Origin: an uncultured virus (IMG/VR IMGVR_UViG_2049941000_000201)
Lineage: Duplodnaviria > Heunggongvirae > Uroviricota > Caudoviricetes
Reading direction: 5' to 3' (one strand)
Length of the DNA: 61,295 bases
IMG/VR virus record: IMGVR_UViG_2049941000_000201
Of the stretch, positions 21,341-48,244 are shown piece by piece (position 1 is the stretch's first letter; each line of letters starts with the position of its first letter). The position numbers and the translations under genes are program-made. The notes below the pieces were generated by a model that was given only the letters and a program-made list of their open reading frames with translations, made no database searches and was not told the origin of the DNA.

Positions 21341-21439
21341 CTCCTTGCTAATTGTTAATTGCTTATGACCTTAATATAGCATTTATTTGCTAGATGTGCA
21401 AGTGATTTTTTAAATTTTTATGTAAAAATTTTGTTTACA
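21341..21439 (-). promoter_or_regulatory. Early promoter repeat, copy A
   Basis: AT-rich UP element, TTGCAC-17bp-TATATT, then leader GCAATTAACAATTAGCAAGGAG. Confidence 0.85.
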
Positions 21440-32074: not shown

Positions 32075-33250
32075 TTCCGGCCTCCTTTGTTGCATATCAA
32101 ACCGGTCTCGCCATACGTTCCAGCAGGGAAAGGTTGGTTGGTTTGTTGCCCCGCATTGGTTGCCCGGTAATTGTTGCACATCAAAATGCAATTTATAACT
32201 ATGTCTTCTTTTACCATTTGCAGTTTGTTCTGCAACAATTATTTTTTCCGAATTTTGCGTTGTTTCGGCGGGTTTTGCGGGTTTCCGCCCGCGTTTTGGC
32301 TCCGGGCAGGCTTCAAAAAGTTCCTTGTGGCGGCTTTTGAAGCAGGTTTCCGCCCTGGTAAGGGCTTCTCCGCGCAGCAACTTTTCCCGCAGCGCCTGCG
32401 CCCGGTTCATGGTGCTTTCAAACGTCCCGCGTTCCCTGGCTTCCCGGCGTATTTCCGAAAGTTCTTCCTTTTGCCACGGACTAATCACCACCTCGCCCGT
32501 TTCGGCGTCGTAGTACCTGCAAAGGAGTTTCAAAATGGCGCCCGCAGCGCCCTGCTTTAGACGGTCGTTCGCTCCAATCCAGCGCCAAACGAACGCTTCC
32601 TGCTCGCCCCTTGTGGGGAGTTCCGCAATGCCCGCGTCCACAATTTGCTGGGCAATTTCGCGCCGCGCCTTCCGGTCGCTCCACCCCCTGCGCCTGCTGC
32701 GGCAATCGTAGCCCGGCATATTTACAACAATTCGCTCCGCAGCCCCAAGGCCTGCCCGGTTTAGCGGGCGCCAGGTTGCCCCGAGGTGGTTTTTAACAAC
32801 CCCGAAGAAGTCCTGGGCAAGCGTGCCGATTTTCCTTATGGTTTCCCGGTCGTTTAGGTTGGAGTAGTGTTCAAGTTCGTCCTCCACCCGCAGCCGCACG
32901 GCGTCCCGGTTTAGCAGGCGCCCGGTCACAAATTCCGCAAGCAAGCCCTGCCAAACGCAGGAACGCACCAGTTTCATCATCGCCAGGTGGCTGAACCTGC
33001 ACACCTGCAACTTTCCGTCCGTTTTCTTGAACCAGTGCTTGAAGTAGCAGGTATATTCGTCGTGTTCCGTGCGGACCCCTTCGTGCCATAACTGGGTCGT
33101 GCAGGGCGATTTTTCAAGCCCGTTTTCGTCCCAACTTGCAACGACTTCGTCGCACTTTAGCGTCCTTTTAAGTTCTTCAACGCGGAAGCGCAGCCGCTCC
33201 GCCGCTTCCTGCCACAACTGGGCGGAAACGCAAGTAATCAAGGCCTTCAT
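31727..33250 (-). CDS. Large hypothetical protein, candidate replication initiator, read through into the glycosylase domain
   Basis: 507 aa; first gene of the leftward arm; contains an internal AT-rich inverted repeat. Confidence 0.45.
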   Translation of the reverse strand: MKALITCVSAQLWQEAAERLRFRVEELKRTLKCDEVVASWDENGLEKSPCTTQLWHEGVRTEHDEYTCYFKHWFKKTDGKLQVCRFSHLAMMKLVRSCVWQGLLAEFVTGRLLNRDAVRLRVEDELEHYSNLNDRETIRKIGTLAQDFFGVVKNHLGATWRPLNRAGLGAAERIVVNMPGYDCRSRRRGWSDRKARREIAQQIVDAGIAELPTRGEQEAFVWRWIGANDRLKQGAAGAILKLLCRYYDAETGEVVISPWQKEELSEIRREARERGTFESTMNRAQALREKLLRGEALTRAETCFKSRHKELFEACPEPKRGRKPAKPAETTQNSEKIIVAEQTANGKRRHSYKLHFDVQQLPGNQCGATNQPTFPCWNVWRDRFDMQQRRPEMRLWHPALLQELPDKKLSTLHASLCRVRSRPWGKPTAKTWYYNLSWGCLVWYHSLVIREMQGRGWRVLVKWLDYSYRGKNKEPAPGEYGKESGHLRELEAIAFDPVERQRKALRV

Positions 33251-40410: not shown

Positions 40411-42404
40411 ATGGTGGACACAAAAAAGCGAATAACGTTTGACATTGAAACATACAACGCCGCCTTCATTGTGACGGCGCTTATTAACGGCAGCGAGTGG
40501 CAGGAATACGTTGTTTGCCCCAGCGTGCAGGGCTACCCGCAGCAAGTGGACTGTTCGGTGGTGCGCGGAGGCGTNNNNNNNNNNNNNNNNNNNNNNNNNN
40601 NNNNNNNNNNNNNNNNNNNNNNNNNNNNNNNNNNNNNNNNNNNNNNNNNNNNNNNNNNNNNNNNNNNNNNNNNNNNNNNNNNNNNNNCAAAAGTTTTGAC
40701 CTTCGCGTGCTTTCGTGGATTGCGAACTGCGGAAAGGAAACGCTTACAACCGAAGAAATTGCGCAGGCCGCTGGCAAACTTATTTCCGACCTAAACGCAA
40801 AGTTCGGCCACCCCAAAACGTCACCCTGCTGGGACGTAAAGTATTCCGAAATTGCAAGGGTGCGCAGGCAGCACTTTGACGTTTTGAAGTGCTACACCAT
40901 AGAACATTCCCTTAAGTGGTGGGAAATGCGGCGCGGCTGGGCAATTAAGGAAACCAGCGTGCCGTGGGACAAGCCCACGCTCACGGAAAAGGAATTGCTG
41001 GACTGCCGCCGCTATTGCAGGCATGACGTTTATTGCACCGACCGCCTTTACATGGAAAAGGATTGCCAGGAGCACATTGAAGCCCGCCAGTGGGTAATTG
41101 ATAACGCCGACTGCGAAATTTTCCCGGACGTGCCGAACGCGGAACTTGCGGAACTTTATTGCTACGGGGACGGCGAAACCGCCGACGAAATTGAAACCTG
41201 CTTTGACCTGGTGCCGTGGGACACGTTTAAGGTTCCCGAAGATTTTTTGTACAAAATGATGCAAATTGCACGCCACGAAATTGAAAGTTTTGAGTGGCGC
41301 GGCATTACCTACGGGGCGGGCGGTGCGCACTATGCAAAGCCGGGGCGCCACAAGGGCGTGAAAATTTTTGACGTTGCTTCGCTTTACCCTCATATTATTT
41401 GGTTTATTACAAAGTTAAAAACGCCGCAGGCGCTGGAGCGATATGTTGGCTGCATTTTGAAGCGCCTGGAAAACAAGCGCAAGAAGGGGACGCCGGAATA
41501 TAGCAAGAGCGCGGACAAGGGCTTGAAACTGGTGCTTAATAGTTTGTCCGGAAAGTTTGGGCAAAAGGGCTCCAAGGCATACGCGCCGGAACACCGCCTT
41601 GCAATGTGCATTATTGGGCAAACCCTAATCACGGAAGCGGCCTGCGCCGCCTGCGGGGACAACTTTGAAAACCTAATTGAAATTAACACCGATTCCTTCG
41701 CGGTGCTGGGCGAAAAGGAAATTGAACGAGCCCGCGCATACTGCGACACAAAGCCGCACGGCTTCACCTTTGAAGAAGACGACTTTGCGGATAGTTATTG
41801 GAAGGATGTAAACAATTACTTTGTTTACAAGTTTGGCGAAGGTGGCCTGTCGCTTAAGGAAGCGCACGGCAAGGTCGGCACCAACCTGGACGAAGACCAC
41901 TCCGAAACCATTGTGACCGAAAGCCTGGCGCTGGCGGTGCGCATGGAAGTGGGTGCGGAGTTGGCGCTGGCGGAAATTAAAAACCCGGCGCCAGCCCTGC
42001 GCGTGGAAAACTGCGTGGTCAAGTATTCCAAGGCGGTGTCCGCAGTGAATGCCGCAATAGGCGGCAAGCCGCTGGACTGCAAATACTATTATTTCCTTTG
42101 GACTACACCGGAATGCCCCAATTCCTGCCGCGTGCAGTTTTCCGGCGAAAAAATTGACAAGTACGGAACGGTCGCGGTGCGTCATGGGGTTTATGGCTTT
42201 AGCCTGGAAGAATTGCGAAAGTACGAACAATATATTGACCCGGAGCAGTACCTGGAAGACCTTAAAAAGCAACTTGCAGTGTGGGGGCGCAAGGATTTGT
42301 TCACCCCCGTAAAGGCGCGGAACGTGCCGGAACACTGCACAACGTTCCACGAGGTGCGGCAGGTCGCTGGCGGCTTTTTTGACATGCCCGATGATTTGTT
42401 TTAA
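40411..42404 (+). CDS. Family B DNA polymerase (spans N gap)
   Basis: FDIET, YCRHDV, DVASLYP, KLVLNSLSGKFG, NTDS and KDVNNY motifs. Confidence 0.9.
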
Positions 42405-42410
42405 CGTTCA

Positions 42411-42435
42411 AGCCCGGCACATTTGCCGGGTTTTT
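42411..42435 (+). terminator. Intrinsic terminator
   Basis: GCCCGGCA-catt-TGCCGGGT followed by a T run. Confidence 0.7.
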
Positions 42436-42436
42436 G

Positions 42437-42540
42437 TGTAAACAAAATTTTTACATAAAAATTTAAAAAAATCGCTTGCATATCTAGCAAATAAATGCTA
42501 TATTAAGGTCATAAGCAATTAACAATTAACCACAAGGAGC
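42437..42540 (+). promoter_or_regulatory. Early promoter repeat, copy B
   Basis: TTGCAT (42476)-17bp-TATATT (42499); near-identical to copies A, C and D. Confidence 0.85.
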
Positions 42541-42545
42541 CAACC

Positions 42546-42833
42546 ATGAGCACACCCTGCATCATTACCCGCAAAGAAAACCCCACCATCGCAGTTTACA
42601 TTCACTGGGACGGCTACGATAAGCAGATGGTTCAAGACATTGTAAACATTGCGAAGAAAAACAACGCCCGCAACCCGAACAACGACGAAGCCTACGGAAT
42701 AGCCCGCCTGGTTTGCGCCTGCCAGGAGTATTTCCAGGACCAAACCACGGGCTTCGGTGTGGGCACGCCGAGCAGTTTTTACTATGACTTTCACTGGGTT
42801 GTAGACGAAGACTGGAACGTTAGGGAAGCCTAA
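42546..42833 (+). CDS. Conserved early phage protein
   Basis: AVYIHWDGY motif. Confidence 0.7.
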   Translation: MSTPCIITRKENPTIAVYIHWDGYDKQMVQDIVNIAKKNNARNPNNDEAYGIARLVCACQEYFQDQTTGFGVGTPSSFYYDFHWVVDEDWNVREA

Positions 42834-42834
42834 A

Positions 42835-42901
42835 CCTGCCGAAACGCCCTGCCGGGCGTCCGCAGCCGGGTGGCACCCGCTGCGCCGATGATGGCAAGCC
42901 A
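42835..42901 (+). ncRNA. Type II hammerhead ribozyme
   Basis: UGCC-GAAA-[CGCCC/GGGCG]-UC^-[CGCAGC/GCUGCG]-CCGAUGA-U-GGCA; loop I UGGC pairs with 3' GCCA. Confidence 0.75.
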
Positions 42902-42930
42902 AGAATTAACAATTAGCAAGGAGCAAGACC

Positions 42931-43284
42931 ATGGCAATGAAAATCGTTTCGCAGCAGACCAAGAAGTTCACCATTAACGGGAAGGAAGTTGAGTGCGTTG
43001 TGACCCGCCGCGAGGGCAAGGTGCGCAGGCGCGACGGGTGGCGCCAGTGCGTTTCCACCGAAGGCCATTGCAGCCTTTACGAAAATTGCTACTGGTTCCC
43101 GGAAAACACCGATGGAAACGAAACCGCCGCCTTTAGTTGCGACGGGTGGGAACCGCGTGAGCCGGAATTTGCGGACGTGGATGCGGTTGTGACCGCCATG
43201 GTTCGCGAAATGAAGGGCTGGGGCGATGCTGGCGAAGCCGACCGGGAAATTGAACGCATTGCAAAGGAGGCTCAAAATGCTTAA
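42931..43284 (+). CDS. Hypothetical protein
   Basis: Leader repeat and AAGGAG RBS. Confidence 0.65.
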   Translation: MAMKIVSQQTKKFTINGKEVECVVTRREGKVRRRDGWRQCVSTEGHCSLYENCYWFPENTDGNETAAFSCDGWEPREPEFADVDAVVTAMVREMKGWGDAGEADREIERIAKEAQNA

Positions 43285-43438
43285 TTTCAACGAATACATC
43301 CCGGCAGGTGGCTGGGTTAGGTTTAACAAGCGCAGGGCGTTCAAGCGCCGCGTTTTCCGCGTGGCTTGCAGCGCACTGGGCTGCGCCGTGCTGCTTGGCT
43401 TTTACGCCCTTGTGGGCTATGTTGAAAGGGGGATTTAG
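43277..43438 (+). CDS. Small membrane protein
   Basis: AAGGAGG RBS; basic stretch followed by a hydrophobic helix. Confidence 0.55.
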   Translation: MLNFNEYIPAGGWVRFNKRRAFKRRVFRVACSALGCAVLLGFYALVGYVERGI

Positions 43439-43439
43439 C

Positions 43440-43607
43440 GTGACGAACCTGGACCATTTTAAGCGCGGCATTACCGCCGAAAACCTTTGTGATAAAATTA
43501 TGTGCAGCGAGTGCCCGTTTTTCGGCACCCGTGGGAACGCCCCTTGCACCGCCAGGCTTGCGGAATGGGCGCGGCAGGAATACAAGCCAGCAAAAAGGGA
43601 GGCATAG
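43440..43607 (+). CDS. Small Cys-rich protein
   Basis: MTNLDHFK..CSECPF..C. Confidence 0.55.
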   Translation: MTNLDHFKRGITAENLCDKIMCSECPFFGTRGNAPCTARLAEWARQEYKPAKREA

Positions 43608-43608
43608 C

Positions 43609-43842
43609 ATGGCAACCAAAACGCAGAAGGAACTGATTAGGGAATACCTGGAACGCGGCAATTCCCTCACGCCGATGGATGCCCTGGAATTGTTCGGGTG
43701 CTTTAGGCTTGCCACCCGCATCTTTGAACTCAAGCGGGAAGGGCTGGACATTGTGACGGACATGGTGGAAAACAAGGCCACGGGCAAGCGATACGCCAGT
43801 TATCGCCTCGTGCCCGCCCCGGTGTGCAGTGACCCGCTTTGA
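43609..43842 (+). CDS. Helix-turn-helix protein (HTH_39-like)
   Basis: TQ..LI..YL..G.SLTPMDAL..FGCFRLATRI.EL...G..I..RYASYRL. Confidence 0.8.
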   Translation: MATKTQKELIREYLERGNSLTPMDALELFGCFRLATRIFELKREGLDIVTDMVENKATGKRYASYRLVPAPVCSDPL

Positions 43843-43929
43843 CAACGGAAAGCGCGAACTTTACATTGTGCCCGTTGCTGGAAAGGGCTCCCCGGTTAGC
43901 GTTTCCCTTCCTTCCGTGAGGGGCTAACC

Positions 43930-44076
43930 ATGAAGCCAGTTTGCCGCAACCGCTTGACTATTGACTACACCGCCCGCGACGCCATTGAAGACCTTGAACT
44001 GGCAATTCGCAAGGCTGAACTGCAACGGAACAAGGAACCAGCCCGCAACGGCTTCCGCATTTGGAGGAAATGGTAA
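43930..44076 (+). CDS. Small protein (48 aa) coupled to the sigma-like gene
   Basis: MKPVCRNRLTIDY..; TAATG overlap. Confidence 0.5.
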   Translation: MKPVCRNRLTIDYTARDAIEDLELAIRKAELQRNKEPARNGFRIWRKW

Positions 44077-44792
44077 TGGAACACAAACTTGAAGCCACAA
44101 ACGAACTTTACTTGCAGTGCCGTGGCACCATTGAAAAGGCCTGCTGGGACGCCTGGCGCAAAAACCCGCTTTTGGAACTTGACGATTACCGCAGTTATGC
44201 AAATGAGGTTTTCATGGACGCGGTGAACTCCTTTGACCCGAATGCCGGGGTCAAGTTCAATTCCTGGCTCACCACGCAACTCCTGCGCCTTAAGCCATAC
44301 GCGAACCGGGGCGGCGTTATGACCACCGACAGCCGTGGCACCGCCGAAAGCCTGGTTTTAAGCCTTGACGCGGCTGCAAGTGTGGACGGCAAGCCCTGCA
44401 CCCTGCTGGACAAGAAGCAGCCCGCAAATGACGCCTATTCCGCCGAACTGGGGCTTCCCGCATGGGCGACCAGTTGGGAACACCGCATGGCGAACTTGAA
44501 GCCGTACATGGGCGCCTTAAGCCCGGACGCCCGCACCATGGTGGACGACATTTTGGACGGCAACGCGGCGAAGAAGGACGAACACGGCGTGCCCAAACTT
44601 GAACACGGGCGCCGCCTTTACGTGAAACTTACCCCGCGCCAGTTGTATGTTAGGCTTTACCGCCGCAGGGGGTGGAACTTTGAGCGCGTGCGTGACGCCC
44701 GCATTGAAGTGGAAAATATGCTTCGCAGGTGGGAGCCCTGCAAGTTGCCCGAGCCCGGCGAACTTGTGCAGGTGCAGGAAGAACTTTTTTAG
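44076..44792 (+). CDS. Sigma-70-like transcription factor
   Basis: Region 2-like DD....NEVFMDAVNSFDPNAGVKFNSW; region 4-like LSPDAR...GWNFERVR. Confidence 0.7.
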   Translation: MEHKLEATNELYLQCRGTIEKACWDAWRKNPLLELDDYRSYANEVFMDAVNSFDPNAGVKFNSWLTTQLLRLKPYANRGGVMTTDSRGTAESLVLSLDAAASVDGKPCTLLDKKQPANDAYSAELGLPAWATSWEHRMANLKPYMGALSPDARTMVDDILDGNAAKKDEHGVPKLEHGRRLYVKLTPRQLYVRLYRRRGWNFERVRDARIEVENMLRRWEPCKLPEPGELVQVQEELF

Positions 44793-47601: not shown

Positions 47602-47693
47602 CAAAATTTTACATAAAAATTTAAAAAATCACTTGCATATCTAGCAAATAAATGCTATATTAAGGCTATAAGCAATTAACAATTAGCAAGGAG
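47602..47693 (+). promoter_or_regulatory. Early promoter repeat, copy C
   Basis: Same -35/-10/leader repeat as copies A and B. Confidence 0.85.
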
Positions 47694-48163: not shown

Positions 48164-48244
48164 AAAATTTTACAAAAAATCACTTGCACATCTAGCAAAT
48201 AAATGCTATATTAAGGTCATAAGCAATTAACAATTAGCAAGGAG
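48164..48244 (+). promoter_or_regulatory. Early promoter repeat, copy D
   Basis: Same -35/-10/leader repeat. Confidence 0.85.

Follow-up and report, generated by a model that had tools for sequence, protein, structure and literature searches.

Type II hammerhead ribozymes, collected in Rfam as family RF02276, have been known from the intergenic regions of phages since 2011. The phage and prophage examples have an open stem II and closed stems I and III (RF02276, PMC3088659), and they hold in common a GAAA segment, an A15.1-U16.1 pair followed by C17, and a pseudoknot between loop I and the 3' tail (PMC3088659). They occupy intergenic positions within operons and have a ribosome-binding site (RBS) shortly downstream (PMC3088659); the prophage hammerheads flank genes and cut transcripts of about 2 kb (PMC3088659). 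The ribozyme described here comes from a 61,295-nucleotide stretch of DNA of an uncultured member of the Caudoviricetes (IMG/VR record IMGVR_UViG_2049941000_000201), referred to below as the window, and it is like the phage and prophage examples in its helices, conserved letters, pseudoknot and operon position. As an element it is ordinary; what the locus adds is a common and conserved core variant, C in place of U at position 4 (C4), which often escapes detection at Rfam thresholds.

This one-letter core change has also been reported in a viroid hammerhead (PMC3088659), where U4C reduced activity in vitro and infectivity was retained (Ambros and Flores 1998, as cited in PMC3088659); Perreault et al. 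(PMC3088659) discuss U4C for the viroid only. The haloviruses HF1 and HF2 likewise have a hammerhead with a variant core, set a few nucleotides before the helicase gene that opens an early polycistronic unit (PMC3088659), and a transcript 5' end has been mapped at the ribozyme cut site (PMC3088659).

Structure of the hammerhead and its fit to the Rfam model

The initial annotation, made from the sequence alone, had proposed a type II hammerhead with a variant core, and all the parts it listed (the stems, GAAA, GUC, the core and the pseudoknot) are present. The motif occupies positions 42837-42901 of the plus strand, to which all coordinates refer unless marked otherwise, and is covered both by the full RF02276 model and by the minimum free energy (MFE) fold. 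Stem II pairs U42837-C42840 with G42893-A42896 and leads into G12A13A14 (42841-42843). Stem III pairs A42844-C42849 with G42854-U42859 around a UGCC loop, A42844 and U42859 forming the A15.1-U16.1 pair, and C42860 is H17. The cut site GUC lies at 42858-42860, with cleavage predicted between C42860 and C42861. Stem I pairs C42861-C42866 with G42879-G42884 and is extended past the bulged C42867 by G42868-G42870 with C42876-C42878. The core strand C3-C4-G5-A6-U7-G8-A9 (CCGAUGA, 42885-42891) was assigned from the sequence and the Rfam alignment. The pseudoknot is formed by UGGC in loop I (42871-42874), which is complementary to GCCA in the tail (42898-42901); at the corresponding places of the Rfam consensus, loop I has UGG and the tail AGCCa.

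Within the core, position 4 is C42886 instead of the consensus U4, the departure that had been pointed out, and the other six of the seven positions of C3-U4-G5-A6-N7-G8-A9 fit. An extra U directly after A9, flagged at the same time, is indeed present at 42892, but it is not unusual: UGGC comes directly after A9 in 14 of the 29 C4 hammerheads compared and in 21 of 68 canonical ones, the latter counted among the IMG/VR matches listed. The MFE fold of the ribozyme is exactly the three-stem hammerhead fold, and the MFE and centroid folds agree on the layout, in which loops close stems I and III but stem II is open. The fold energy is ordinary for such a GC-rich composition (z = -1.12; 27 of 200 shuffled sequences were equally stable).

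Searching with RF02276 (Hammerhead_II), the check suggested for this motif, gave a full-length alignment, from model position 1 to 66 of 66, at 34.3 bits. The E value was 1.6e-5 for the 301 bases searched and 0.0033 when the whole window was searched on both strands with all 4227 families. The score lies 2.7 bits under the Rfam gathering score of 37 bits, so no Rfam match to the ribozyme is reported at the gathering threshold. Scores of this kind are not peculiar to the window. Among the loci scanned, 6 of 10 with a C4 core and 2 of 10 with a canonical core fell below 37 bits (L173, L159, L170, L157, L162, L148, L046 and L092), and they have mainly the loop GAUGGCAAC and the tail UGGCAAGCC; L046 and L092 combine a canonical core with the UGGCAAGCC tail of the window ribozyme and are both under 37 bits. 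The price of the core letter itself can be read from near-identical U4/C4 pairs, in which C4 costs 3 to 5 bits (L109 at 50.2 vs L166 at 45.0 bits; L006 at 42.8 vs L145 at 39.5 bits). A sub-threshold score is thus typical of the UGGCAAGCC-tail subfamily, which the RF02276 model serves poorly. Judged by its sequence and by family comparison, including the full-length Rfam alignment, the segment 42837-42901 is a true member of the type II hammerheads and belongs to the phage subfamily that has the UGGCAAGCC tail. Elsewhere in the window, positions 32906-32951 gave a weak Rfam match to the chrB-b RNA (25.3 bits against a gathering score of 36.5, E = 0.38).

Cytidine at core position 4 in phage type II hammerheads

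The frequency of the C4 core was determined in IMG/VR with an anchor formed by the stem III of the window ribozyme, GAAACGCCC...GGGCGUC. This stem is identical to the Rfam consensus and is uninformative on the core. The anchor by itself retrieved at least 123 loci and at least 130 matches. Among the 130 matches listed, the anchor was followed by CUGANGA in 77, by CCGAYGA in 2 and by neither in 51, many of the last resembling type I hammerheads. A complete scan for the anchor with CCGANGA gave 38 loci, 37 of which were hammerhead-like by eye, having both stem I and stem II and in most cases the pseudoknot; the remaining locus, L156, had none of these. Control scans with the same fixed stem III yielded far fewer hammerheads: A or G at position 4 gave 4 loci with one real case (L179, G4), a letter other than G at position 5 gave 12 loci with none, and a letter other than A at position 6 gave 29 loci with 4 real cases, all A6G. 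The remainder of the position 6 scan consisted of 16 canonical cores in a shifted register, one C4 copy, 4 variants of the U3 type or with insertions, and 4 chance matches. At the core positions scanned, 4 to 6, C4 therefore outnumbers the second most frequent variant by a factor of about ten. U4C is usually regarded as crippling, yet it is by far the commonest substitution at these positions in phage type II hammerheads.

A second scan, in which CCGAUGAUGGCAAGCC was fixed and stems I and III were left free, found 28 loci (21 distinct sequences). The hammerhead architecture was intact in 28 of 28, and an RBS and ATG followed 10-45 nt downstream in every one. The two scans, of 28 and 38 loci, share 6 loci, which brings the C4 total to about 60 IMG/VR loci. 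The letter at position 7 was U in 26 of 29 distinct C4 sequences vs 37 of 68 canonical sequences among the matches listed (Fisher p = 0.0009, a value that ignores kinship between the sequences), and it is possible that core positions 4 and 7 are coupled in C4 hammerheads. In one 19.6-kb phage fragment, six type II hammerheads lie within 4.1 kb (L257, G008:C1:9900-14300), two with C4 and four with U4, each immediately before an RBS and start codon; one member of this array has AUA in place of GUC at the cut site. The 3' half of the window ribozyme (CCGAUGAUGGCAAGCCA) recurs identically in IMG/VR hammerheads such as L170 and L173.

Other core variants were seen among phage type II hammerheads that otherwise look intact. 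Examples are extra letters in front of U4 (CUGUGACGA, CUAUUGACGA and CUGUUGACGA), U3 with A8 (L195) or with G8 (L200), G8A (L022), A6G (L198, L216 and L217) and the G4 core of L179; core-variant loci also include L058, L108, L207 and L210.

Covariation in homologs had been named as a test of the helices, and in family-level sets restricted to C4 members it is found. The first alignment (A2) holds 30 sequences, the window ribozyme and 29 distinct ones from IMG/VR, selected mechanically for at least 4 closing pairs in stem I and at least 2 in stem II; duplicates, L143/L154, L156 and L169 were left out. In this set 94.2% of cells pair, as against 29-41% in controls with slid partners. All 4 outer stem I pairs, whose pairing is partly guaranteed by the filter, and all 5 pseudoknot pairs, which are free of it, changed on both sides. 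The second alignment (A3), of 22 C4 sequences assembled without a structural prefilter, has 97.6% of cells paired (slid controls, 26-40%). Compensatory changes occur at 13 of its 21 pairs, among them all 8 in stem I and 4 of the 6 in stem III. No ortholog of this particular copy was found at the syntenic place in the relatives examined, so both sets represent the family at large.

The roughly 60 loci, the compensatory helices, the rarity of changes at neighboring positions, and the occurrence of U4 and C4 together in near-identical pairs and in one array indicate that C4 is a tolerated natural variant, not decay. Because the same changed letter occurs in dozens of intact phage hammerheads, the window ribozyme is probably functional, a variant form of a known RNA-processing element and not a broken copy, and most likely the C4 ribozyme still self-cleaves. 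Searches of the open-access literature gave no account of a C4 subclass in phages; the supplementary alignments of PMC3088659 or subscription papers may list such variants.

Gene order, promoter copies and related genomes

The plus strand around the ribozyme encodes a primase, a sliding-clamp-like protein, a DNA polymerase, a sigma-like protein and a DnaB-like helicase. Directly after the stop codon (42402-42404) of the DNA polymerase gene (40497-42404), a terminator-like hairpin with a T run (42412-42436) closes the preceding unit, a layout also present in the closest relative, L130. The next unit opens with a promoter block at 42476-42508 (TTGCAT-17 nt-TATATT, with TG before the -10 element and an A/T-rich upstream stretch), one copy of a repeated 33-mer. 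Behind it come a variant leader, AATTAACAATTAACCACAAGGAG (42514-42536), and the first gene of the unit, an ORF of 95 codons (ORF95, 42546-42833, stop at 42831-42833) with no family match. Three nucleotides separate this stop codon from the ribozyme, and 2 nt separate the ribozyme from an exact 20-nt copy of the leader (42904-42923) that ends in the Shine-Dalgarno sequence AAGGAG (42918-42923). The ATG at 42931 then begins an ORF of 117 codons (42931-43284), the gene that would come first in the 3' cleavage product. The 117-codon ORF has a weak and unreliable Pfam match to Ntox35 over 34 residues (23.4 bits, cut-off 23.6).

The leader, AATTAACAATTAGCAAGGAG, has four exact copies in the window vs none expected. 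The 33-mer promoter block also has four copies, with no mismatches (21369-21401 on the minus strand, 42476-42508, 47633-47665 and 48184-48216), and the exact 20-mer leader stands behind three of them, the fourth (42476) having the variant leader. The copy at 42904 is the only exact leader without the 33-nt promoter block, and the ribozyme stands in the promoter's place; the adjacency of the hammerhead to a promoterless leader copy, as originally described, is confirmed. That the leader is called promoterless follows from the missing 33-mer and from the ribozyme, at 72% GC, filling the space. Between 42509 and 42930 a scan for the sigma-70 consensus gave no site, weak evidence given that the promoter copies at 42476 and 47633 escaped it too, and a promoter for the phage's own sigma-like factor may be present in front of the 42904 leader. 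No strong terminator was found between the 42476-42508 promoter and the ribozyme.

The early-promoter modules as a whole span 21341-21401 (minus strand), 42476-42536, 47633-47693 and 48184-48244. Each runs from an A/T-rich stretch through the promoter (TTGCAY-17-TATATT) to a AATTAACAATT... leader and an AAGGAG RBS, and a similar leader core occurs in relatives (CAATTAACAAT in L130, CAATCAACAAT in L126). The 20-mer leader itself was found in IMG/VR at a single locus, the homolog of the 21341 copy, where it has the promoter. Inside ORF95, 60 nt before the stop, a terminator-like hairpin at 42753-42782 (8 pairs, 2 of them G-U) is followed by CAGTTTTTAC; the number of such sites found, 14, is close to the 11.8 expected by chance.

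Relatives identified through the polymerase (65-83% identity) lack the ribozyme. There were no Hammerhead_II matches at E <= 1 in 4 IMG/VR loci around the polymerase, of which L125 ends inside the polymerase and is uninformative, none at E <= 1 in 5 metagenome loci, one of them L130 with its 83% identity, and none at E <= 0.01 in 3 whole relative records, a search that detected 3 of 3 hammerhead-holding records used as a positive control. These absences indicate that the ribozyme is dispensable in this phage lineage. The stretch after the polymerase is variable: its small ORFs differ among relatives, and the terminator-promoter-leader layout is kept. A blastn search of GenBank phages with positions 41500-44500 gave no match, and the nearest records (G001 and G002) are without the ribozyme region.

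The DNA runs that contain the window are labelled as bovine gut or rumen metagenomes. In other studies, DNA contigs run from ORF95 into the ribozyme (X5 record 4 and X6 record 13), and another (X5 record 7) joins the promoter and leader to the ribozyme across 208 unrelated letters; in two longer contigs (X6 records 14 and 16), stretches that resemble the ribozyme, with 5 to 8 differences, lie in a different setting. Because the upstream gene is exchanged in these contigs while the ribozyme is kept, the ribozyme, position 4 aside, looks like the fixed boundary of an exchangeable gene slot. In rumen DNA runs the segment 42838-42933, comprising ribozyme and leader, is assembled as short separate contigs, and its contig depth is 2 to 6 times that of the flanking sequence. 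Several genomic contexts or strains apparently share it. Metatranscriptome X19, which consists of contigs only, covers 42539-42805 and then 42873 onward behind a 29-letter unlike head; the cut site is left uncovered, and the gap and contig ends carry no weight either way. A hammerhead scan of genome contigs returned 7 loci, 3 of them chance matches and 4 real hammerheads on contigs of metagenome-assembled genomes labelled Muribaculaceae (2), Schwartzia and Fimenecus; with so few loci and such uncertain binning, these do not name a host.

Proposed function, alternatives and comparison with known systems

It had been suggested that self-cleavage stands in for a promoter. That part of the proposal was not borne out: because the leader at 42904 is without a promoter block, the RNA must start at 42476-42508, about 390 nt upstream, and run through ORF95. 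What the ribozyme can supply, on the predicted structure, is a new and defined 5' end before the leader, not transcription initiation. We consider it likely, with some reserve, that an active ribozyme processes an early polycistronic RNA and gives the downstream genes a hairpin-capped 5'-OH end before the standard leader. The 42476-42508 promoter would produce one transcript comprising ORF95, the ribozyme, the leader and the 117-codon ORF and continuing towards the sigma-like and DnaB-like genes. The ribozyme would fold during transcription and cut after C42860, leaving an upstream piece whose 3' end is the stem III hairpin carrying a 2',3'-cyclic phosphate and a downstream piece that begins with a 5'-OH and, at once, the stem I hairpin, followed by the unstructured A/U-rich leader and RBS. 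The fold predicted for the 3' product has stem I at the very 5' end and leaves leader and RBS unpaired. The downstream leader would in this way be freed from whichever gene sits upstream, as with an engineered ribozyme insulator. If this is true, the mRNA for the replication genes keeps the same leader and 5' end whatever small gene enters behind the promoter.

We infer that cleavage may affect mRNA stability and translation. A ribosome ending 3 nt upstream would cover stem II and part of stem III, and folding would consequently compete with translation. The 5'-OH end generated by glmS is a substrate of RNase J1 in Bacillus, and in Firmicutes such an end can promote decay (PMC3328962), so any stabilizing effect would depend on the 5' hairpin and on the host. 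The 5' hairpin, rather than the hydroxyl, would then be the protective feature.

The observations that speak against a working ribozyme deserve to be weighed. U4C considerably decreases in vitro activity (PMC3088659), the score of 34.3 bits is under the Rfam cut-off, the motif is absent from all relatives examined, and the near-identical U4/C4 pairs (L109/L166 and L006/L145) imply that the change can be recent. All this could fit a case in which U4C had killed catalysis and the window held an inactivated or nearly inactive copy, persisting only as a stable intercistronic hairpin cluster or as a recent, undecayed acquisition. We regard this as unlikely. Inactivating transitions at other positions should then be similarly frequent, but with stem III fixed there are 37 real C4 loci against none for position 5, one for A or G at position 4 and four for A6G; the C4-only sets retain all helices and the pseudoknot through compensatory changes; C4 and U4 members stand side by side in the L257 array; and the ribozyme is kept in other rumen samples in which the upstream gene differs. 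Mere chance resemblance in a GC-rich intergenic hairpin region is very improbable, even though the fold energy is no better than that of shuffled sequences and the score is under the gathering cut-off, in view of an E value of 0.0033 for the whole window across 4227 families, an alignment that spans the full model with the pseudoknot tail included, a 3' half identical to those of the L170 and L173 hammerheads, and a stop codon and RBS placed as in the family.

A change that leaves the ribozyme alive might still alter it. C4 could slow cleavage or make it dependent on ions, pH or a factor, and the fraction cut would then set the ratio of upstream to downstream expression. Precedents come from a natural A6C phage hammerhead whose preference is shifted from Mg2+ to Mn2+ (PMC7151607) and from the suggestion of Perreault et al. 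that slower phage variants may be conditional (PMC3088659), and the association of C4 with U7 hints at a specific local structure. However, C4 and U4 fill equivalent slots of one array and interconvert between near-identical ribozymes, and near-neutrality fits the data equally; a tuned or conditional ribozyme at this locus seems to us quite improbable. The wider proposal that C4 hammerheads form a distinct tuned subclass, slower or dependent on ions or pH and coupled to U7, that provides regulated processing sites, with the present member acting as an insulator beside a hypervariable slot, we hold to be rather doubtful. Active processing of the early RNA remains our preferred reading. The C4 variant is a natural test of the part played by U4 in the uridine turn. 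One 20-nt leader and RBS, found three times behind a promoter and once behind a ribozyme, provides a clean natural comparison through which the role of hammerheads in bacterial and phage gene expression is testable by simple reporters.

Unlike a typical RF02276 member, the window ribozyme has C4, scores 2.7 bits under the cut-off, occurs as a single copy instead of in an array, and adjoins a leader that is elsewhere part of a promoter module. The viroid U4C hammerhead is of another type and processes replicating RNA, not mRNA (PMC3088659); unlike the viroid case, C4 in phages is a recurrent subclass of about 60 loci. The HF1/HF2 element differs in its core variation, in belonging to viruses of archaea and in its high-salt requirement (PMC3088659). 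The window ribozyme, unlike that of HF1/HF2, follows an upstream ORF. Insulators of the RiboJ type combine a self-cleaving hammerhead with a hairpin before the RBS, by which variable upstream RNA is removed and the 5' untranslated region standardized; RiboJ itself is a synthetic insulator derived from the hammerhead of a plant satellite RNA. The window locus resembles RiboJ in its order of hammerhead and hairpin before an RBS, and the window ribozyme may play an insulating role.
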